64,000 bases of DNA, taken from NCBI GenBank assembly GCA_964016885.1, contig OZ024741.1:126170001-126234000 (forward strand), written 5' to 3'. The notes beneath the pieces are model-generated. The model was not told the origin of the DNA. It worked only from the letters and a program-made list of their open reading frames with translations, and made no database searches. Below are positions 13,683 to 64,000 of this stretch, piece after piece. The first letter of the stretch is position 1; every line of letters starts with the position of its first letter. Position numbers and translations under genes: made by a program. This DNA is from Eledone cirrhosa. Taxonomy: Eukaryota.

Positions 13683-14615
13683 GCGAATAACGAGACACTG
13701 GTCTACTAAAGGAATCACTAGTCAGATTTTACGGACAAAACCAACTTGCACGAAACTCAGGGGTAGCCCACGAGCAAGATGGTTGAATAACATCCATGCA
13801 TTTAGTTTGGTTTGCTTAGGGTCCAGCTAGATCAATTGGAGACAGTTGGTTATGATATGACACTCTGGAAAGTGTGTCTGTGGACTCTACACCCCACACA
13901 GGAATAAATGAGCGAAGAAGAAGACCAAAGTACTTGAAATTGTTATACAGCGAGAAAACAATCAAAATAATGAAATGTTTATTCTTAAAGAAGAATGAAT
14001 GCCCAAAGCCTATATACATTATGTTTTTAACAAAGTCATACACACTTTGAACGTAGCTCACAGTACCTACATTGCTAATATCGTGGGCACACATGGGTTT
14101 GCGGACCCAGAACTACTCTAGCTCCTACAATTTCTACGACAGCGTACAAAAACACCAGCGTTTATTTCTCAGAATAACAATAATAGTATATAAGAATATA
14201 ACTACACCATATATCGATCTGTAAAGAATATTGTAAAACAATAATAGTAATAATAATCGTAATCTACCATGTAACCGTTTCTATGTGAATATAATAAATG
14301 CTTTCATGTTCCAAGGCTATTTTATATTGAAGAAAAACAAGGATTCGAAAAATGGATGTTTTCACAGATATATGGGAGGGAGACAACGGACAATAGTTGG
14401 TGAGTGGTGGTGAAGGAGGGAGTTAAATGGTAATAGATAGATATCGAGGGTGCGTGAGAGGAAGAGGATAATTGACGATGGGTTGGTTTGTGTTGGTATT
14501 TTATTGGTTATTGGGCTTTACGAGAATACAGTTAAGTACTTGTCACCATCTCATAATACATTAAATCTCAAGATATAAATAACGTCACATACACACACGT
14601 ACATGATGCACAAAC

Positions 14616-32831: not shown

Positions 32832-33199
32832 TATATAATTTCCCTTTAAGGATTACCATATATTATTAAACTGTATAAATCATGTTAAATATACTTTAGC
32901 AAGCTATTCGGACAGAACAAAATTATTTACGAAGAATGCAAACAAAGGAAGATAACTCGTTCATCATATGTGAACATTTAAAACATTTAAGTATTTTGAA
33001 AACCAAAAGATATTTCAAACCACAAATCAAGAAATTTCTAGTTAAACAATGACCTTTCTAAATCCAAACATAGGATACTGAGACACATCATGAGATTAAT
33101 TTACTAGATAAAAACGACAAACAATTTTTACCGGTAAGGCAAAACGTTATATATATAATTTTTTAAGAATTATTAATAGTCAATATTTTTTCAAAATTT

Positions 33200-34846
33200 G
33201 TATAATGCTTGAAAAGTTCTTCCAGACTTATGTTGACAGCTACTAAATAACTCATTTTTCTTATTAATTAAATTACCATAATTTGTAATTATCAATAGTC
33301 TCTAAATTGCAAAGATTGCAATTTGGTGAATTGGATGCATTTCGGTAGGAATCAGTATACTTTAACTTACTCCAAAAAATTGAGTATTTGATATTTTTTT
33401 CCTTCAAAGACCATATTAATTGTGAGAGTGATGTAGACATTTTTTTATCTGGATTAGAAAAAGAATGTTTATGATTATAAAAGCGAAACTTAAACTTAGA
33501 TGAAGTGGCACCAATGTAGTCATATGTATTATTATTATTATTCTTAATAGTACATTTATACACCAGATTCTTGTGAAGGCAGTTATTTTGTAAAGGGCAT
33601 TCTGATTTCCTTCTACAGTTACAATTCATTTCGATGTTATTTCTATAACCTAAACTATTCGTATTATTATTATTATTGGGTGGTGGTTTGGCAGTATCGG
33701 TAGAGGGTCGGACAACATGCTTTGTAGCACAGAGTTACGCCCCTTTCTGATCTGAGTTCAAATCCTGCCGAGGTTAACTTTGTCTTCATCCTTACGAGGT
33801 CGATAAAATAAAGTACCAGTAATGCACTGGGTAATTGCTGGCCTTGTGCCAGTAGAAACAATTATTATTATTATTATTTAGAGGTGTTCTACTATTATTT
33901 GTATTTAAACTATTATTATTGTTATTCCAATTAACTAATGTATTATTATTATTATTGTTATTATCGCTAATTATATGCTGGTTCAAATTAAGATTTTTAC
34001 TATTTATTTTTGCTATATTTTGAGCAATATTCATAGTTGTTGAATAAGAGAGTTTAACTGTGTGTCTATTGATGATAGAGTAAAACTTATCTGATCTAGG
34101 GAAACATTTATCCAAGGCTTTAAAAAATAAATGTGCTAAAGGTGTTTTAATAGCTAAAGATGCTGGCGGAGCATACCAAATTATAGATCTAGTCCTTATT
34201 TTTCCCCCCAATTTATTCCTCAAGTTGTTGTTTTTACAGTCAATTCCATTATTGTTATTATGAATACTGAGATTATAATTAATATTATTTTCTTCTACAT
34301 ACTCAATATTATTTTTATATCCTGCTTTATGTAAGGCTTCATTATAATATACTGCTTTACTATTAAATATGGATCTATTAGCAGATAGATCCATATTTGT
34401 TGTTGGATATTCGTTGTTGGACACTGTTGACTATTGCATTTTTAACACTTTTAGGATGATTAGAGTAAAAACTAACATAATTTAAGTTTCATTGAGTTTA
34501 TGGAAGGGGTAATAGAAGCCTGAATTCAAATTAAGAGTTAAATCTAAAGAATTAACTATTTTATTGTTATTTTCTACTTCTAATTTCAGGTCATAATTTT
34601 TAAAGAATTCTATAATTACTTTCTTTACACTATTTAATTCGCTATTATTATGTCTATCTACAGTAAGTAATATGTCGTCTCCATATAAACCACCGGTAAT
34701 CTCCGGCAGTTTTCTATTTATCATATTAAGGATGAAAATTCCCACAAGATCGGTAACTTGCGCCGAATCAGACGAGCCCATAGTAATGTCAACATTTTTC
34801 TGCCTATCTGATCTAGTCCAAAAATCATTATTAAAATCAATCAAGT
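33200..34846 (-). pseudogene. 5'-truncated, frameshifted PLE (same lineage as 177-2513)
   Basis: MGSSDSAQVTDLVG, YGDD, IIWYAPP, CNCRRKSECPLQNNCL, LVY..YIG; interrupted by a SINE. Confidence 0.9.
33678..33866 (+). mobile_element. SINE family 1 inserted in the poly-Asn (AAT)n tract of the PLE
   Basis: (TTA)n on both sides; the PLE frame continues across the insertion. Confidence 0.88.
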
Positions 34847-34958
34847 AGAATTATTTATATATATATATATATATAAAGAATTCTACTTGATTGATTTTAA
34901 TAATGATTTATATATATTTATTGATATGATTATATATGATTTATATATATTTATATAT

Positions 34959-36374
34959 AAATTGGAATAAATGCTCTGAAATAGCGATATATATGTGAAT
35001 ATAGACATAGAATATTCGAAAATATTCTGTATGTTTATAATAAACATTTTGAAGACCTAATCGCTATAGAATAGAATACGTCACGTATTACAATTAGATT
35101 CTCGATAAAAGCAAGGGAAGTAATCTACGCGTTTCATTCTTGTTAGAAATCTTCAGGACTACATATCCAGTGCTTTTATCGAGAATGACACAGCTAGAGA
35201 CTTATAGAATACTTAGCTGTGTACAGGAACTGGTTTGAAAGAGCGGTTGCCGGTCCGGCAGAAATTAGAAATTGGAATAAATGCTCTGAAATAGCGATAT
35301 ATATGTGAATATAGACATAGAATATTCGAAAATATTCTGTATGTTTATAATAAACATTTTGAAGACCTAATCGCTATAGAATAGAATACGTCATACAGAA
35401 TATAAACATACAGAATATTTTCGAATATTCTATGTCTATATTCACATATATATCGCTATTTCAGAGCATTTATTCCAATTTCTAATTTCTGCCGGACCGG
35501 CAACCGCTCTTTCAAACCAGTTCCTGTACACAGCTAAGTATTCTATAAGTCTCTAGCTGTGTCATTCTCGATAAAAGCACTGGATATGTAGTCCTGAAGA
35601 TTTCTAACAAGAATGAAACGCGTAGATTACTTCCCTTGCTTTTATCGAGAATCTAATTGTAATACGTGACGTATTCTATTCTATAGCGATTAGGTCTTCA
35701 AAATGTTTATTATAAACATACAGAATATTTTCGAATATTCTATGTCTATATTCACATATATATCGCTATTTCAGAGCATTTATTCCAATTTCTAATTTCT
35801 GCCGGACCGGCAACCGCTCTTTCAAACCAGTTCCTGTACACAGCTAAGTATTCTATAAGTCTCTAGCTGTGTCATTCTCGATAAAAGCACTGGATATGTA
35901 GTCCTGAAGATTTCTAACAAGAATGAAACGCGTAGATTACTTCCCTTGCTTTTATCGAGAATCTAATTGTAATACGTGACGTATTCTATTCTATAGCGAT
36001 TAGGTCTTCAAAATGTTTATTATAAACATACAGAATATTTTCGAATATTCTATGTCTATATTCACATATATATCGCTATTTCAGAGCATTTATTCCAATT
36101 TCTAATTTCTGCCGGACCGGCAACCGCTCTTTCAAACCAGTTCCTGTACACAGCTAAGTATTCTATAAGTCTCTAGCTGTGTCATTCTCGATAAAAGCAC
36201 TGGATATGTAGTCCTGAAGATTTCTAACAAGAATGAAACGCGTAGATTACTTCCCTTGCTTTTATCGAGAATCTAATTGTAATACGTGACGTATTCTATT
36301 CTATAGCGATTAGGTCTTCAAAATGTTTATTATAAACATACAGAATATTTTCGAATATTCTATGTCTATATTCA
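34959..36374. mobile_element. Retrozyme-like array: 310-bp monomer, about 1.4 inverted copies (34959-35393) plus about 3.1 tandem copies (35401-36374)
   Basis: Copies appear identical. HHR gtagtc-CTGAAGA-tttct aaca agaat-GAAA-cgcg-TA-gattac at 35588, 35898, 36208 (+) and 35120-35162 (-); stem I extended by attctcgataaaagca/tgcttttatcgagaat. Confidence 0.92.
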
Positions 36375-36417
36375 TATTTATATATATTTATTATAATGAT
36401 ATATATATATATATATA

Positions 36418-36876
36418 TTTTGAGTTTATGTTGGTTGTATACCAACACCTCAGTATGCAGGCTGGAGCACTCGACGAAGTGCGCAGGTTGGTTTGGTTAC
36501 TCCGGAGTAATGTAAAATAAAGTTAAATAAAAAGTCAAATGTTTAAAATTTAGCTTCGTTTATTACTGTTATATATATTTCAGTGACAGCCATCTTTGGC
36601 TGTGACCTCTTCAGGCAGTTTGAATTAGTATGGTATAGACAAGTACATATGTTGTTGAGGTGTATAATATTGTCAATACTCTGATATGCCCAGTTCCTGG
36701 TTGGGTTGTTATTTCACTGAGGAACTGGAATCATATGATTCCAGTTCCTGTACTTGTCTATACCATACTAATTCAAACTGCCTGAAGAGGTCACAGCCAA
36801 AGATGGCTGTCACTGAAATATATATAGCAGTAATAAACGAAGCTAAATTTTAAACATTTGACTTTTTATTTAACTT

Positions 36877-36885
<9 letters not shown>
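36418..36885. mobile_element. Hammerhead element family C with inverted arms; HHRs at 36565-36619 (-) and 36777-36831 (+)
   Basis: actgc-CTGAAGA-ggtcacagcca aaga tggctgtcact-GAAA-tatata-TA-gcagt; homolog at 55798-56056. Confidence 0.85.
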
Positions 36886-36961
<76 letters not shown>

Positions 36962-37042
36962 AAAGGTAAACAGAAATAACACAACCGGTACAGTATATGG
37001 AAGGGATATATTAGCTTAACGCTTGATATAGCAAGAAGAGGG

Positions 37043-37078
37043 TCTTAACGTTTCGGACGCTAGTCCTTCATCAGAAGA
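37043..37078 (-). ncRNA. Minimal hammerhead typical of PLE pseudo-LTRs; decayed relative at 6099-6134
   Basis: tctt-CTGATGA-aggac tagc gtcc-GAAA-cg-TT-aaga. Confidence 0.75.
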
Positions 37079-37617
37079 AAGAATGAGAAATAAGATAGAT
37101 TGAGGGGACGGGCGGGTTGGAATTGGAAAAAATATCTTTAGATAAAAATAACAGGTCCATTCATGTTGACATCTCTTGCAAAACTGTTGGTGCTGGCGTT
37201 TTGTGTATGGTTTATCTTTTAGAAAAGTGGATGATGGTGCGCGTCTACCTGAAATGAAAAAAAAAAACGTTTTGTAAAAAGAGCTATACTTTTGCACGTG
37301 CGTAAGCAATTGTGTGTGTGTGTGTTATACGTCCGTACGAAGCTAAGAAGAAATGTGTGTGTATATGTGAGTAAAAGAGTGTGTGTGCATGTAAGTACGA
37401 AGCTATGAGCAAAAGTATGTTAATATAAGGGTGTGTATGTGTGTATACATAGGAGTGAAGGGAAAAGTGGAGTGAGCATATATAGTCGGCCTGTATTAGT
37501 TGTAAGAGATGTTAATGATCAAGAGAAAGCGATAGGAATCAAGGGGTGTGATATGCGTGTTTGTGTATGTATAAATGTGTGTGTTTGTGCATGTATACAT
37601 ATATATGCATATATGTT

Positions 37618-41555: not shown

Positions 41556-44530
41556 ATATTGTTATACTTGGGGAGGGTCATATTTGTGTAATATTGCCAG
41601 AATTAATAACAGAAAACACTCACTGTTTGGTTGGTTTTCGCTTCTCGCTGTCTTTTATATCTGCGATCTAACTTAATCGGTCCTCAATGTTGCCATTGAC
41701 TGACCGACGGTCAAAAATAATACAGATACAATATAGACACAAACACATATATATAGTTTACATAATTTACATAAATCTTTCGTTGCACATCTGCAACATC
41801 GTCAGTGGTGTTATATTTTTTCCTCCTGTTGTGTTGTATGCCTACGCCATTTTTTATTCAGTCTGTCTATATATTTATTTATTTATTTGCTTGTTTGTTT
41901 ATTTTATTTTGTCTTCTTTGCGCATGCGTTTGCGTGTGTGTACCCCACATCACCAACACGAGCGAAGTTGCACAACAAACACACGATGGGAGAGAAAAAA
42001 TCCTCAACGCTCACATGATGATGTGGACTGACATCCTAAAGCCAAGCAGACGCACTGCCAACAACTTCCAGGCGTCTAACAATGGCATACCACCCTTGTA
42101 TGGGCTCCGCAAAGACCACAAGACAGTCGACGACCCGACAACAGGACCACCAACAAGACCCGTATGCTGAGCTAATATAGCTAGCAACTACAGGATCTCC
42201 TACTTCCTCTCGATGGTTATACGCCCCATAATCAAGATGTCCCCAGATGTATGTGAAAGTACAGAGGACCTCCTCAGCAGAATCAGTGAGTGCAACAAAA
42301 ACAGGAGCCTATCCAACTGCATAATAGGCAGCATGGATGTGGTGTCACTGTACCCATCCATTAACATTGATTTTGCTGTGAAAAGATGTGTGGAGATGAT
42401 CATCGAGAGTGAGGTGGAGTTCTGCGACGTCGACACACGAACTGGGCCTCCTACTTAGACTTACCTACGACACTGACTACCTAGACAGCCATGACCTTAG
42501 ATGTTTCTGCCCTAGTAGACCTATAAGAGGTAGACCCCCCCACCATAACCTCAATGGCAAAAAAGACTCCCATGGGAAGGTGGATTGGGTGGACCAAAGC
42601 TATACGGACCCCCCAAAACAATGATCAGGTAAGAAAAATGGTCGCACATGCAATAGGGGCTAGTATCAAAACTACCCTAAAGGGCCACATATTTAAGTTC
42701 AATGAGAAAATCTACACCCAAAATGAAGGAGCAGCCATCGGCGTCAGCATAGCTGGTGATGTTGCCAACCTTTTCATGGTATGGTGGGAAAGGAGACTTA
42801 AAGATCTCCTTAATGAAAGCTCCATAGACCTCATCATGTACTCTCGTTATGTAGACGATATCAATATAGTTATAAGAACACCCCCACTAGAGAGCACTAA
42901 CAAGTTCGAATTAGAACGTAGCACAATGGAAAGCATCCAGCAGATAGCTAATTCCATACACCAGAGTATAACTGTAACTATCGACTTCCCTTCCAAACAC
43001 CCAACAATAGACTACCTGTATTAGACACAGAACTCTGGATTAACACTATAGACGAGAGAGCCCAAATTCTCCACTCACACTATGCTAAACCCATGGCCTC
43101 TAAATACCTGATACTCAAAAACTCAGCAATGTCCAGTAGTGCTAAGTTTAATATTCTGATCGCAGATTTGGTACGAGTGATGAAGAATGTGTCCAGCATG
43201 TGCGACCCAACAGAAATGGAAAGACACATCCAACACTTCATCAACCGCATGCAGTTCTCTGGCTACAACCAAAGAGACAGAGTCAGAGTATACGAAGGAG
43301 CCATGGAAAAGTATAAGACCCTAATAGAACTGGACATGAAAGGAATTTGCCCATTATACAGGAGCAAATCATGGAATAGCTTAGATAGGGCTAGACATAA
43401 GATAGGGAAGGCCACATCATGGTACGACAACCAGAGATATCAGAGTGTCATGTTTGTGGACGCCACCCCTGGAGGGAAATTAGCTAACCAGTGTAGAAAG
43501 GCCCTGAGAAAGACCCACTTAAAAATAAAGGTGGTAGAAAAGCCAGGAACCACCATAAAATCCCTGATCAGCAAAGCCTACCCCTTTAAGAAAACCCACT
43601 GTACCAATAGGAAATGTATCATATGTAAGGTGAACCCCCGGATAAACTGTAAAACTAGAAACGTAGTCTATAGCATAAGATGTACAGAGGGTACTTGCAG
43701 AAACATGACAACAACATACATAGGCGAAACAGCTCGTAGCATAGGTGAAAGGATAGACCAACACTGGGGGGAACTAAAAGGACGAAAAAACGGGTCAGTA
43801 CTATACGAACATGCTAGACAACAACATGACGGTAACATAGACAACATAGAAATTAGAATAATATCTAAACATAGGAATGACCCAGCAGATAGGCAAATCA
43901 GAGAGGCCAGTGAAATAGAAATTAGAAGACCAAAGCTAAACAGAAAGAATGAGTGGAACAACAACAACACCCAAACAAACAATACTGACCTAAGAGAAGT
44001 ATAAATAAGTAAATAAAATAAAATAAAATAAGATAAATAAATACATACACAAGCACAATAACAACAAGCACATAAACACACACTAGTCACCCAGCAGACA
44101 CAACACTATACACACTAATCACACAGCAAACGTAACACTATACACACACGCAAACGCATGCGCAAAGAAGACAAAATAAAATAAACAAACAAGCAAATAA
44201 ATAAATAAATATATAGACAGACTGAATAAAAAATGGCGTAGACATACAACACAACAGGAGGAAAAAAAAATATAACACCACTGACGATGTTGCAGATGTG
44301 CAACGAAAGATTTATGTAAATTATGTAAACTATATATATGTGTTTGTGTCTATATTGTATCTGTATTATTTTTGACCGTCGGTCAGTCAATGGCAACGTT
44401 GAGGACCGATTAAGTTAGATCGCAGATATAAAAGACAGCGAGAAGCGAAAACCAACCAAACAGTGAGTGTGTTCTGTTATTAATTCTGGCAATATTACAC
44501 AAATATGACCCTCCCCAAGTATAACAATAT
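41556..44530 (+). mobile_element. 5'-truncated PLE flanked by an inverted pLTR pair (41556-41942 and 44141-44530); RT + GIY-YIG pseudo-ORF 41943-44004
   Basis: LYGLRKDHK, MDVVSLYPSI, GAAIG, RYVDD, VVY..YIGET..R..H; one in-frame TGA and about 3 frameshifts; pLTR has CTGACGA-tgttgca gatg tgcaac-GAAA at 44281. Confidence 0.92.
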
Positions 44531-50940: not shown

Positions 50941-51054
50941 AGGTAACAATTGTTTCTATATTGTGTGGGTTACCTATACCTCGCTATTTGTATAATATAA
51001 AAATATTATCATAAATCGTAGGTACACTGTAAGATTCACCATGTCGTCAGACCT
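50941..51054 (-). ncRNA. Candidate hammerhead with a long stem II insertion
   Basis: aggt-CTGACGA-(about 87 nt)-GAAA-caattg-TT-acct; stem II pairing is weak. Confidence 0.5.
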
Positions 51055-51059
51055 TTATG

Positions 51060-51513
51060 GTGAATTTGTCACTACTTTAAAACAATAGCTTACGGTCTTC
51101 AAAATGCTTTTAATTAAGCATAAAGTGTATTGTAAAATACGTTATATATACATCCATATATATATTGCTACTTCAGAGCTCCAATTCTAATTTTTAATTT
51201 CTACCTGACCAACAATCGCTCTGCATAATCAGCTCCTGATTATTTACTAGATTTCTATAAGAATATTACATCAATGATCTCAGTAGACAGGTAGGGTAGT
51301 TGGCCTTGATAAGCTTCAACCAAAGCGAAACAAGTCTTGTCGGCTTATCTCCCCTGTTTGCTGAGATCAAAGTGAGTGAATTTGTCACTACTTTAAAACA
51401 ATAGCTTACGGTCTTCAAAATGCTTTTAATTAAGCATAAAGTGTATTGCAAAATACATTATATATACATCCATATATATATTGATATTTCAGAGCTCCAA
51501 TTCTAATTTTTAA
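51060..51513 (+). mobile_element. 316-bp monomer, about 1.4 tandem copies, with a U3:A8 hammerhead (51302-51345)
   Basis: ggcc-TTGATAA-gctt caacca aagc-GAAA-caagtcttg-TC-ggct; stem I extended by gatctcagtagacagg/cctgtttgctgagatc. Confidence 0.82.
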
Positions 51514-51530
51514 TATATATATATATATAT

Positions 51531-53324: not shown

Positions 53325-55193
53325 ATAAATTGAAACAAAATGAAAACGAAATTTCATTTCTCACTCTTAGTATGGCACTTACTTAAATGTAAGTATGCAT
53401 GTATACGTACATACAAATATGTATAAAGACGTACAGTAGCATGCACATATATATATATATATACATATATATATACATATGCATACAGGTACACATACAT
53501 ATATGCACGTATCAGTTTAGCGGCGCTAACGTCGCTTTGTTCGTTTGTAAACAAACTGAACAGCCTGAATTTATGCCATACGGTGTTAAGGCAACCACGT
53601 CACCTTTTTGTTCAACACTGACACAGGAACGATGTACTAGTTTCAAGCTTGTTAGCTATCATCAGCACCGTTTACCCATCTGCCAGATAGTTGAACGTTC
53701 GAAAGTATATACTTTCCTTATGAAAATTAACGGCTGAGCAGCCTAATTTGCATATTGAGTGAGTTAAATCGGTCAGGCATACCGAAAACGATAAATTGAA
53801 ACAAAATGAAAACGAAATTTCATTTCTCACTCTTAGTATGGCACTTACTTAAATGTAAGTATGCATGTATACGTACATACATATATGTATACAGACGTAC
53901 AGTAGCATGCACATATATATATATATATACATATATATATACATATGCATACAGGTACACATCTGGCAGATGGGTAAACGGTGCTGATGATAGCTAACAA
54001 GCTTGAAACTAGTACATCGTTCCTGTGTCAGTGTTGAACAAAAAGGTGACGTGGTTGCCTTAACACCGTATGGCATAAATTCAGGCTGTTCAGTTTGTTT
54101 ACAAACGAACAAAGCGACGTTAGCGCCGCTAAACTGATACGTGCATATATGTATGTGTACCTGTATGCATATGTATATATATATGTATATATATATATAT
54201 ATGTGCATGCTACTGTACGTCTGTATACATATATGTATGTACGTATACATGCATACTTACATTTAAGTAAGTGCCATACTAAGAGTGAGAAATGAAATTT
54301 CGTTTTCATTTTGTTTCAATTTATCGTTTTCGGTATGCCTGACCGATTTAACTCACTCAATATGCAAATTAGGCTGCTCAGCCGTTAATTTTCATAAGGA
54401 AAGTATATACTTTCGAACGTTCAACTATCTGGCAGATGGGTAAACGGTGCTGATGATAGCTAACAAGCTTGAAACTAGTACATCGTTCCTGTGTCAGTGT
54501 TGAACAAAAAGGTGACGTGGTTGCCTTAACACCGTATGGCATAAATTCAGGCTGTTCAGTTTGTTTACAAACGAACAAAGCGACGTTAGCGCCGCTAAAC
54601 TGATACGTGCATATATGTATGTGTACCTGTATGCATATGTATATATATATGTATATATATATATATATGTGCATGCTACTGTACGTCTGTATACATATAT
54701 GTATGTACGTATACATGCATACTTACATTTAAGTAAGTGCCATACTAAGAGTGAGAAATGAAATTTCGTTTTCATTTTGTTTCAATTTATCGTTTTCGGT
54801 ATGCCTGACCGATTTAACTCACTCAATATGCAAATTAGGCTGCTCAGCCGTTAATTTTCATAAGGAAAGTATATACTTTCGAACGTTCAACTATCTGGCA
54901 GATGGGTAAACGGTGCTGATGATAGCTAACAAGCTTGAAACTAGTACATCGTTCCTGTGTCAGTGTTGAACAAAAAGGTGACGTGGTTGCCTTAACACCG
55001 TATGGCATAAATTCAGGCTGTTCAGTTTGTTTACAAACGAACAAAGCGACGTTAGCGCCGCTAAACTGATACGTGCATATATGTATGTGTACCTGTATGC
55101 ATATGTATATATATATGTATATATATATATATATGTGCATGCTACTGTACGTCTGTATACATATATGTATGTACGTATACATGCATACTTACA
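53325..55193. mobile_element. Retrozyme-like array: 466-bp monomer, about 1.4 inverted copies (53325-53960) plus about 2.6 tandem copies (53961-55193)
   Basis: HHR aacggtg-CTGATGA-tagct aaca agctt-GAAA-ctag-TA-catcgtt at 53977, 54443, 54909 (+) and 53628-53672 (-). Confidence 0.92.
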
Positions 55194-55248
55194 TATATAT
55201 ATACATATATGTATGTACGTATACATGCATACTTACATATATATATAC

Positions 55249-61400: not shown

Positions 61401-64000
61401 TGTAGTTAGGACTTGTCGGTAGCCAACTTGAAAATTTTTCGTGGCGAAAATGTTTTTGAAATACTGCCAATTTTCAAAAAATTTTGAAAGGAATATATTG
61501 TATTTTCGCAAGTTGCGAAAAAGGTTGGCAACGTGGCAATAAAAGTTCAACTGAATGAAAAAGAAGGGCTGCGTTAAATTCTTACGTCGGTCATCACTTT
61601 AACAGGATTGATGATTGATGGTCGTTAGTTGCCAGTGTGGTAAGTGATAGTATCCTCGTTGGATTATCTTGTTGACATAGACGTGAGGGAAGGTCCCTCG
61701 ATCTATTTACAATATTCCTTTCGTCAGGTCGCCAATTTCAGCAGCATGGATTATAGATGTTATTGAGACACGAGTAACATAATAATGATTTCAACAGCAG
61801 TAATTAGAGATGAAATGTATGTTTATTTTTGATGTAGCACAAACAATGTTTGTTAACTTATATGGTTGAAGTTACAGATAAAAAGAGGTTACAAAAGGGA
61901 ATGTGCCATTAAGCCGGCGAGGCTAGGGTGCAAGATCTCACCGTTACATTATGCGTGTTGCTGGCTTGAAGTTTCCGGTACAAGAGGAAGATTCTTCAAA
62001 TCTTCGCGGGGAATTTCTTTCCCAGGGCGCGTAGGGATACATCCTCTTCTACTGGCGCTGATTGGCTGAACTGAGCCAAATCACGCACAGAGAATGTATG
62101 TGAGCCCGCGGAATGTAGGTCACTACAAACCCATACCACCACCTACACAGACATAAACAAAAACCAAACCTAAGCAAAAAAGAATGGAATGGTCTTAACA
62201 GTCTAAAGAACGACAAAACCCTAACAATCAAAGAGGAGGATAAAGGGTGTGCAATAATCCTTATGAGGACAGATTACTACACGACTCTAGTACTCTCAAC
62301 TCTAGAAAACCATACATATTACGAAAAGGCCCAACACTACACACAACAGAAAATAATGAGAAACCTAAAATCCCTAATAACCCTTTACAAAGAAGGCCTT
62401 ACCGACAAGGAATACAACTTCATCACAAATTTCAAAAGCAGAACCAGCCTCTTCTACGGTATCCCAAAGACACACAAAAGCGAAGTAATAGGCAGAGCCT
62501 GCAAGTAAGCCACAGACATTTACATCAATATACCCCCTCCTGATGACCTTAAATTAAGACCCATAATAGAAGGTACCACATGTGAAACACACCACATAAG
62601 CAACTCCCTAAATATTCTGCTTAAACCTTTCCTAAAACACATAAAAAGCTTCATAAGGGATGACCTTGACATGCTCAACCACCTCCCAACAACACTTAAT
62701 AATGGACATACCCTACTAGTAACCTTTGATATCATCAATCTATATTCCAATATCCCACACAACCTAGGTATAGAGGCAATACAATTCTGGCTTGAAAATT
62801 TCCCTAATGAACTTCCGCAGCGCATCCCTAAAGAATTTGTGTTGGAGGGACTCAAATTCATCTTGGAAAACAGCTTCTTCGAATTCAATGCCAAATACTA
62901 CAGACAGAAATCTGGGACTGCCATGGGCACGAAAGTAGCCCCTCATACGCCAACCTTGTCATGGGATATTTGGAAACCACTCTCAACCGCAAAGTTCTAG
63001 ACAAATACAGTAACCACTTCTACCGACACATAGAAAAAAACTGGAAGAGATATCTGGACGACTGCTTCATCCTCTGGCATACAAGTATAGAAAGACTGAT
63101 TGAGTTTAAAACCCTTCTAAATGGACTCAACACAAACTTACAATTTACAATGGATTACAGCCATGAACAACTCCCTTTCCTCGACATCCTCATCAAGAAA
63201 ACAAACAACAAAATAGAAACAGACATATACTACAAACCCACAGCCTCCACACAATATCTTCCATTTAACTCGTGCCACCCTCGCTATACCAAAATTGCAA
63301 TTCCTTATAACCTAGCCAGAAGGAACTGCACAATAGTTTCAGATAAATACACATGCTACACACGACTAGAAGAATTAAAGAACGCACTTATCAGCAGAAA
63401 CTACCCACCTTCCCTAATCAACAATGGATTCCAACGTGCCCTAAAGCTCAACATCCAGGAACTCAGACACCCCAAACCCAGGAATGAACCGCAACAGAAA
63501 ACTCTACTACACATCTCCACACACAACCCCCTCAACAATGAGGCATTCGAGACCATCCTCCAGAACATTCCTTTACTAAAATGACACTCAAGAATGAACA
63601 AAATCCTCCAAACACACAACATCATAAACAGCAAAAGACAACCTAAATCCATAAAAAAACATCCTCACACAAGCCAAAATCCAATCAACCCTCACGATGA
63701 ACCCTACAGTAAAAATAATGCGGAAGGCCCAACTGTGGCATCTAATAGATAGTTCAACATACCATTTTAAACAAGGACAACATTTCACAGTTAAACACAA
63801 CTTTACATGTGCATCTGAAAACCTAATCTATGTTTTGACCTGCTCAGGTTGTCAAGAGCACTACATAGGACAGACAAAAAAAACAGCCTTCGACAACTTA
63901 TGACCGTCCATAGATCACAAATCAAAATACGGGAATACAGAAAATTTGCTTTTAGTGAACATATCGCCAATTGTACACCTAACCAACATCCAAACTTAAA
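58430..64000 (+). mobile_element. Decayed Neptune-like PLE (RT + GIY-YIG), split by an LTR element at 59482-62127 and running off the window
   Basis: IVNLTSKELT..LSKG.QFTPT, IKEEDKG, FYGIPKTHK, FDIINLYSNIPH, GTAMGT, RYLDD, FLDI, SCHP, FTCASENLIYVLTCSGC..YIGQT; stops and frameshifts. Confidence 0.9.
59482..62127 (-). mobile_element. Non-autonomous LTR retroelement: 530-bp LTRs (59482-60011, 61598-62127), 1.6-kb internal region, AACC target duplication
   Basis: LTRs differ at 2 sites that I could see; they start TGTAGTG and end GTTAAA on the minus strand; PPT AGAAAGGGGG at 60015-60024; PBS-like TGATGACCGACGT next to the 5' LTR. Confidence 0.92.

Follow-up and report, generated by a model that had tools for sequence, protein, structure and literature searches.

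The hammerhead-bearing array in the 64,000-nucleotide stretch of Eledone cirrhosa DNA analyzed here, which we call the window, is best read as one very recent insertion of a noncoding, non-LTR retrozyme with a predicted hammerhead ribozyme. Its 310-bp unit has over 1,000 insertions in (TA)n targets, and by analogy with published Penelope-like element (PLE) insertions these were most likely moved by a PLE enzyme acting in trans. The reading that we favor, at a probability of roughly 0.7, is that the usual template is a monomer circle of the retrozyme, copied in trans by a PLE enzyme that primes at both ends of the target. The retrozyme class has already been published, and the 310-bp family is a new member of it with clear marks of PLE insertion. 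Most telling among its features are two fixed ends, which mark Penelope-type priming and which were absent from the initial annotation of this DNA.

Both arms of the window array point outward, with AT repeats at both ends (Table 1). The + arm is a 974-nt perfect 310-bp tandem in which the three full units are letter-identical; it holds three consecutive hammerhead cores and two complete cut-to-cut monomers (35625-35934 and 35935-36244). The − arm is a 435-nt perfect inverted match. The initial annotation had described about 3.1 identical tandem copies and about 1.4 inverted copies of a 310-bp unit without coding capacity, and that description holds: the measured values are 3.14 and 1.40, and the longest stop-to-stop frame in the unit, which has a GC content of 34%, is 59 aa. 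Unit positions are numbered from the first base 3′ of the predicted cut, so that window position 35625 is position 1. The 7-nt insert at the junction of the arms likely arose from a slip on the template before joining. A 16-nt word at 34939-34954 (also at 34906) recurs at 36376-36391 and is a possible target-site duplication, with an offset and a third copy. The array is neither chance nor a local artefact, as the exact 30-mer across the cut site has 14,048 copies in the genome (3.0 Gb) and the control has 0.

Table 1. Features of the 310-bp array, in window coordinates
Feature	Position	Strand	Details
Degenerate (TA)n target, left	34906..34958	.	Contains the 16-nt word
Inverted arm	34959..35393	-	1.40 units, from unit position 43 to 167, with "tail" start site B at the outer end
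Hammerhead core, inverted arm	35126..35156	-	Only one in this arm
Head-to-head junction	35394..35400	.	7 extra bases repeating a nearby stretch of the unit
Tandem arm	35401..36374	+	3.14 identical 310-bp units, from unit position 87 to 130, with start site A at the outer end
Bulged helix I, copy 1	35564..35652	+	Proximal 6 bp, 35588-35593/35625-35630; distal 16 bp, 35564-35579/35637-35652
Hammerhead core, copy 1	35594..35624	+	CUGAAGA, GAAA, ACGCGU palindrome, GUA triplet; predicted cut after 35624
Stem II of core copy 1	35602-35605/35610-35613	+	4 bp, U.U-closed
Start site A, one unit	35754..35763	+	Positions 130-139, short AT run
Start site B, one unit	35789..35796	+	Positions 165-172; the A-to-B stretch is the Penelope-like tail
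Hammerhead core, copy 2	35904..35934	+	
Hammerhead core, copy 3	36214..36244	+	
Degenerate (TA)n target, right	36375..36418	.	

Other hammerhead-like repeats are present in the window. Two lie to the right of the array, at 36510-36886 and 37030-37080, the first of them an inverted pair. A second two-armed hammerhead array occupies 53329-55194, with a 466-bp unit in 2.6 identical tandem copies plus an inverted arm; it has a U.U-closed helix II and a palindromic helix III, and its arm ends differ, lying ∼60 nt apart.

The 310-bp unit is predicted from modeling to encode an axolotl-like type I hammerhead that would act as a dimer. We take the CTGAAGA...GAAA elements to match the consensus hammerhead core, and an internal loop separates the proximal and distal parts of helix I. 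An Rfam scan of the window gave no hammerhead at the gathering score or at E ≤ 10, where three chance matches were returned; the evidence for a ribozyme is therefore the consensus core, covariation, and folding. Monomer folds have z = −5.2 when linear and z = −4.8 when circular, with 0 of 100 shuffles equally stable in either case, and the unconstrained best dimer fold is a double hammerhead, at −109.3 vs −90.0 kcal/mol for two single ones (19 lower). Among 16 sequences from five subfamilies, two-sided changes occur in 12 of 17 named pairs, a count that 0 of 500 shuffles match, that leaves aside the proximal helix I and helix III (where the alignment shifted), and that is of a kind inflated by related sequences. 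The covarying pairs include all four helix II pairs and C3-G8, which changes to U3-A8. Across subfamilies, 7 of the 12 distal helix I pairs tested show two-sided changes, and pairing falls from 93% to 34 to 50% in slid control structures. Loop II is AAC-like in five subfamilies. Most insertions (L081, L091, L112, and others; runs X1, X2, X3, and X6) carry the core CTGATGA where the window has CTGAAGA, and in haplotype 287A an A-U pair takes the place of the basal U.U of helix II.

The initial annotation called this a minimal hammerhead. The palindromic stem III and 16-bp distal stem that it reported are both present, while "minimal" fits poorly, because helix II contains four pairs that covary and helix I is a long, bulged stem. 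Minimal PLE-type hammerheads are described in PMC7229834 as having atypical helix sizes and no tertiary contact between helices I and II; placing the unit in that class is contradicted by its 4-pair helix II and long bulged helix I. A plant LTR retrozyme, with type III hammerheads in LTRs and a 4-bp TSD, was rejected as well, since helix I is an open stem and the arrays are multimeric. The ribozyme combines a palindromic short helix III, as in HHR_Amex1, with a U.U-closed helix II, as in HHR_Amex2 (PMC7229834). In the passages of that paper drawn on here, hammerheads of axolotl retrozymes whose helix III loop is palindromic, or whose helix II has a U.U at its base, cleave poorly alone but well as dimers, and they form circles in vivo (PMC7229834); for Xenopus, the main text of bioRxiv 10.64898/2026.07.22.740005 gives 8 of 9 dimers without cleavage. 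Cleavage and circles have been demonstrated for published retrozymes; for the 310-bp family both are predictions from sequence.

At 14,048 × 310, the family occupies at least 4.3 Mb of the genome. Exact junctions of (TA)n with the B end (position 165) number 1,013 and those with the A end (position 130 or 139) number 1,178, a total of 2,191, with 0 in each reversed control; (TA)n flanks were also found at BLAST-picked loci, which had been selected without regard to TA. Along C1 as far as 222 Mb, end motifs number 181 and fall into 126 sites, and by scaling from C1 we infer roughly 1,500 insertions genome-wide. Non-fixed variants amount to 0.08 to 0.1% (137 in 178,838 nt and 80 in 80,417 nt), a low rate that implies a very young family. 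Older relatives comprise a 312-bp subfamily and three subfamilies of ∼316 to 325 bp, one of which is 69% identical over 397 nt. An older relative is also present in the window at 51000-51514 (+); it has a 316-bp period and ∼74% identity over part of the unit, and its core has U3 and A8, not C3 and G8. As to the assembly artefact of which the initial annotation had warned, the same design recurs at over 1,000 sites, and short-read contigs carry head-to-head joints at many positions (one sample, which may be the source of the assembly). Runs X2, X3, and X6 each yield one 340-nt contig of the unit, with one or two differences; these were set aside as RNA evidence because tandem DNA yields the same contig.

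The outer ends of the arms are fixed, one site per arm. The 39 loci picked by BLAST comprise 32 two-armed head-to-head insertions and 7 one-armed ones. Where both ends of a two-armed locus are in view, 29 of 30 pair an A end (127 to 139) with a B end (164 to 172), and the other pairs a B end with an end at 74. Outward-facing pairs on C1 up to 222 Mb, called by motif positions alone, are A+B in 55/55 cases. Loci with a partnerless motif (n = 40) resolved into 27 A+B insertions with a variant end, 12 one-armed insertions, and 1 cut by the sequence edge. No A+A or B+B insertion was seen among the 55 C1 pairs, the BLAST-picked loci, and the partnerless-motif loci. The commonest gap between ends A and B is 35 nt, and an older subfamily has the same two ends as the 310-bp family. 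An older subfamily with a shorter AT run also ends at this place, which weakens the idea that site A is set by long pairing of the (TA)n target with the AT run of the RNA. The insertion at L044:4366-5420 is not in a pure (TA)n run and may be flanked by a 12- to 14-nt target-site duplication. At L058:5610-5672, an AT run is followed by a second copy of a short piece that ends at 165, site B having apparently been primed twice.

The inner (5′) ends vary in position, the two of a pair independently of one another, with a mild unevenness across the unit (chi-square P = 0.011); the cut site shows no excess of them, 4 of 174 lying within 5 nt of it vs 5.6 expected. The median length is 1,051 nt for the 89 A arms and 1,115 nt for the 81 B arms, and 152 of these 170 arms are longer than one unit; the lengths of paired arms show no significant correlation (rho = 0.22; P = 0.11; n = 55). 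Arms meet through a 0- to 5-nt overlap or a short re-copied insert. We rejected the possibility that the two arms are one broken concatemer, as their 5′ ends are neither continuous nor related in phase (Rayleigh P ∼ 0.9; n = 55). An arm starts where the other stopped in 3/55 and 2/55 cases, vs 3.7 expected for each. In L1 twin-priming, head-to-head arms that meet through microhomology arise from two primers on a single RNA. The 310-bp insertions resemble its products in their head-to-head arms, their short overlaps, and the proposed use of two primers on one RNA; they differ in that each start is fixed and in that neither arm takes up where its partner left off.

PLE insertions are described as having an adjacent inverted 5′-truncated copy, a 30- to 40-bp tail often at one end, and (TA)n targets (PMC8557442), and a PLE protein cuts and extends both target strands, with two internal start sites that define the tail (PMC11167929). 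The fixed ends, inverted arm, tail, and (TA)n target of the 310-bp insertions thus point to a PLE enzyme in trans as the most likely mover. In vitro, no difference in PLE start sites was found from one strand to the other (PMC11167929), whereas the 310-bp family keeps strictly to one site per arm. Our literature search, with supplements and subscription papers outside its scope, returned no published description of such a one-site-per-arm rule in retrozymes.

PLE fragments are common neighbors of 310-bp arrays, likely because the (TA)n target is shared. In the window, a degraded, 5′-truncated Hydra-type PLE lies at 33194-34850 (−), 110 bp from the array with AT repeats between; it begins near residue 340, and an abundant short repeat interrupts it near 33680-33870. 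At 177-2513 (−), there is a 778-aa open RT-GIY-YIG frame with the motifs RWx, DKT, and CxCx5C, which are those of the Hydra clade (PMC8557442). This frame has 102 scored genome copies at 97 to 100%, many of them long and open and some in outward-facing pairs. Pfam gave 0 families for six PLE-like frames, the 778-aa frame included, so the clade call rests on the motifs of PMC8557442. The ends of the Hydra-type PLE cluster ∼60 and ∼150 nt after the hammerhead GAAA, ∼90 nt apart, and its 3′ region has no convincing similarity to the 310-bp unit; it is therefore a candidate partner by target only. No autonomous PLE terminus similar to the unit was found among 44 ORF groups in 1.2 Mb, a sample that covers a minority of the PLE families in this genome. 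Two other PLE-like families are represented in the window by frameshifted frames, at 42527-44004 (+) and 62119-63584 (+); the family of the former has 96 to 98% identical copies in L037, L093, and L160. The initial annotation had considered that the unit might be an ordinary pLTR attached to a PLE ORF. Against a panel of PLE frames from the sequenced loci examined, 0 of 99 loci (39 + 60) have a PLE frame leading into an arm at its 5′ end, and tblastn found none joined to an arm in 60 loci of two older subfamilies.

Sixty insertions were picked by end motif only for haplotype analysis, and 39 of them have two full arms. A single haplotype fills every unit of both arms in 37 of the 39 (18 haplotype classes), where the chance agreement of two independent arms is ∼0.14; the two arms of an insertion thus share a single RNA or a single source. 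The initial annotation had proposed rolling-circle reverse transcription in one event, and the haplotypes fixed across both arms support it. The 80 variants in 80,417 nt, none of them fixed, were set aside for this question because their 39 loci had been chosen by identity to the query. L070, L071, and L156 entered pooled scans only, and L072 and L073 fell outside the 60-insertion count on account of length. With start points 130 to 170 nt past the cut, and with 152 of 170 arms longer than one unit, the arms cannot have been copied from a single cut linear monomer. The ends lying off the cut site, the arms exceeding one unit, and the lack of a 5′ pile-up leave a circle or an uncut multimer.

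Two variant patterns point to a monomer template. Variant 88T is found in 46 units at five loci; L075 has 11 + 13 of these units, and a run of 10 is found at no other locus, which leaves the assembly without a linear parent. Single 88T units in L147 (a terminal unit) and L150 (an older subfamily) were not counted as parents. The combination 14A+210A+294T is carried by 8 never-adjacent units among the 46 of a mosaic array at C1:217.8 Mb, and it fills all units of both arms of L217 (3.1 and 3.5 units) on C3. No other homogeneous 310-bp 14A run was found among 100 of 103 listed matches, with 16 other 14A loci examined. Five of six 210A insertions examined (L098 and L152-L155) lack 14A, which means that the C1 array is not a direct or general 210A parent, and 210A in it may be a recurrent change. 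A parent array may also be missing from a single assembly. A parent-daughter test for 81A+84A gave no daughters, all 9 copies lying in one array. Where the two arms cover the same unit rank, 45 non-fixed variants are unmirrored and 7 are mirrored (3 loci).

Four loci show other patterns, which the initial annotation had not anticipated. In both arms of L129, one common haplotype gives way to another after unit two; at L109 one variant occurs at the same rank in both arms only; at L117, 276G is in all units of one arm and 2/6 of the other; and L147 has an arm that stops exactly at the cut site and carries 88T in its last unit only. These patterns fit multimeric templates, template switches, or gene conversion, and they fit an uncut multimer template better than a circle. 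Long arrays grown in DNA remain mosaic, and their variants are never fixed. At L144-L146 (C1:217.79-217.81 Mb) and L072-L073 (C1:97.46-97.48 Mb), one arm has more than 40 units with mosaic block duplications, and we regard these as a retrozyme turning into a minisatellite.

On the favored reading, a tandem array would be transcribed, and neighboring units would pair as a double hammerhead whose predicted cleavage would free monomers with their ends held in helix I. Each monomer would be closed into a 310-nt circle, which would be slow to recut because it has one core only. A PLE enzyme would then cut both (TA)n strands and start two cDNAs on a single RNA, from site A (130 to 139) and from site B (165 to 172), where the ends are observed. 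Each cDNA would circle the template ∼3 to 4 times at the median and stop at a variable point, as the observed lengths show, and the two cDNA ends would be joined head-to-head through the 0- to 5-nt overlap or short re-copied insert seen at the junctions. Some long arrays have since grown by block duplication, as their mosaic patterns show. We give slightly better than an even chance to a more specific form, in which a single ribozyme-made monomer circle is engaged by two RT active sites at fixed staggered positions, each rolling round it and one serving each target end.

With the same two-site priming by a PLE enzyme, the usual template might be an uncut or partly cut linear multimer transcribed from a homogeneous array, in which case the hammerhead would matter little and circles would be rare or absent. 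We consider this unlikely, though it is the most serious competitor: it accounts for L129, L109, and L147, it agrees with in vitro PLE data in which hammerhead cleavage was unnecessary and unprocessed RNA was the main substrate (PMC11167929), it suits a weak, U.U-closed ribozyme with a one-pair helix III, and many homogeneous arrays are possible sources. However, it needs homogeneous parents longer than the daughter arms, and these are absent for 88T and, on the 310-bp unit, for 14A among 100 of 103 listed matches. Long DNA-grown arrays stay mosaic with their variants unfixed, mirrored variants are rare (7/52), and the covariation of the ribozyme fold over ∼30% divergence would go unexplained. 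Linear, hammerhead-cut monomers copied by repeated end-to-end template jumps of a PLE enzyme, with no covalent circles, would give the monomer bottleneck equally well, and in the fold helix I holds both monomer ends. Yet 14,048 copies read without a single mismatch across the unit joint at the cut site, per-unit indels in the arms examined are not clustered there, and no 5′ ends pile up there. Template jumps, from work on R2, usually leave extra or missing bases. We hold this route to be improbable.

An even smaller chance attaches to the unit being an ordinary pseudo-LTR of a coding PLE, with the arrays as truncated ends. Its PLE-type ends, the degraded PLE ORF pieces 110 bp from the window array and near several other loci, and the small part of the more than 1,000 insertions covered by the loci examined all leave it some room. 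On the other side, arms run to tens of units without an ORF, the counts of joined PLE frames are 0/99 for family loci and 0/60 for older-subfamily loci, and the ORF beside the window array is broken, starts from about residue 340, and lies beyond AT repeats, while the array is without mutation. Hardly credible to us is a pLTR-born minisatellite spread by DNA-level unequal exchange, or an assembly artefact. Block duplications do occur in long arrays (L031, L048, L051, L072-L074, L077, and C1:217.8 Mb), DNA-level amplification is discussed in bioRxiv 10.64898/2026.07.22.740005, and inverted repeats are prone to misassembly (PMC8557442). Unequal exchange, however, would not be expected to give dispersed sites, fixed ends, and a one-A-one-B rule, nor rare variants common to both inverted arms; most loci are homogeneous with fixed ends, and mosaic growth comes only later, in long arrays. 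The short-read joints described above, from one sample that may be the source of the assembly, argue against an artefact.

The metazoan non-LTR retrozymes described in the main texts of Cervera and de la Pena 2020 (PMC7229834) and Li, Clavereau and Pollet 2026 (10.64898/2026.07.22.740005) share with the 310-bp family a noncoding tandem unit of 150 to 450 bp with a GC content below 50%, a type I hammerhead in each unit, and PLEs in the same genome. At 310 bp and 34% GC, with consecutive hammerheads, no coding capacity, and arms made of the unit only (no LTR pair), the unit belongs among them. Both papers propose, without showing, circles as a transposition intermediate and an enzyme supplied by PLEs. 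Nearly all insertions of the 310-bp family are two-armed with fixed ends, whereas the published retrozyme main texts are without inverted arms: the word "inverted" occurs 0 times in PMC7229834 and once in 10.64898/2026.07.22.740005 (in a reference title), and supplements may show such structures. The main text of the 2026 preprint has neither "tail" nor "haplotype."

With EN+ PLE insertions, as described by Craig et al. 2021 (PMC8557442) and Frangieh et al. 2024 (PMC11167929), the family shares partial tandems, an inverted 5′-truncated copy, a 30- to 40-nt tail at one end, (TA)n or AT-rich targets, and two internal start sites downstream of the hammerhead cut. Unlike them, the 310-bp element has no RT or GIY-YIG ORF, and it forms many whole units, not a partial tandem. 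Chlamys MRC1 (PMC8557442) is a nonautonomous PLE with multicopy head-to-tail insertions, as in the 310-bp family. The Chlamys nonautonomous PLEs resemble an autonomous family at the 3′ end, whereas no such partner was found for the 310-bp unit, and the passages of PMC8557442 drawn on here describe the Chlamys and Naiad PLEs as being without canonical hammerheads.

With more than 1,000 insertions at ∼0.1% unit divergence, the 310-bp family lets models of transposition be told apart by reading the genome itself, and its 310-nt unit with mapped start sites is a substrate for the in vitro PLE system of PMC11167929. If a single circle is indeed engaged at two staggered positions, the insertions would be a fossil record of the PLE mechanism and genomic proof of rolling-circle target-primed reverse transcription in animal retrozymes, and the PLE tail would reflect an asymmetric two-site complex.
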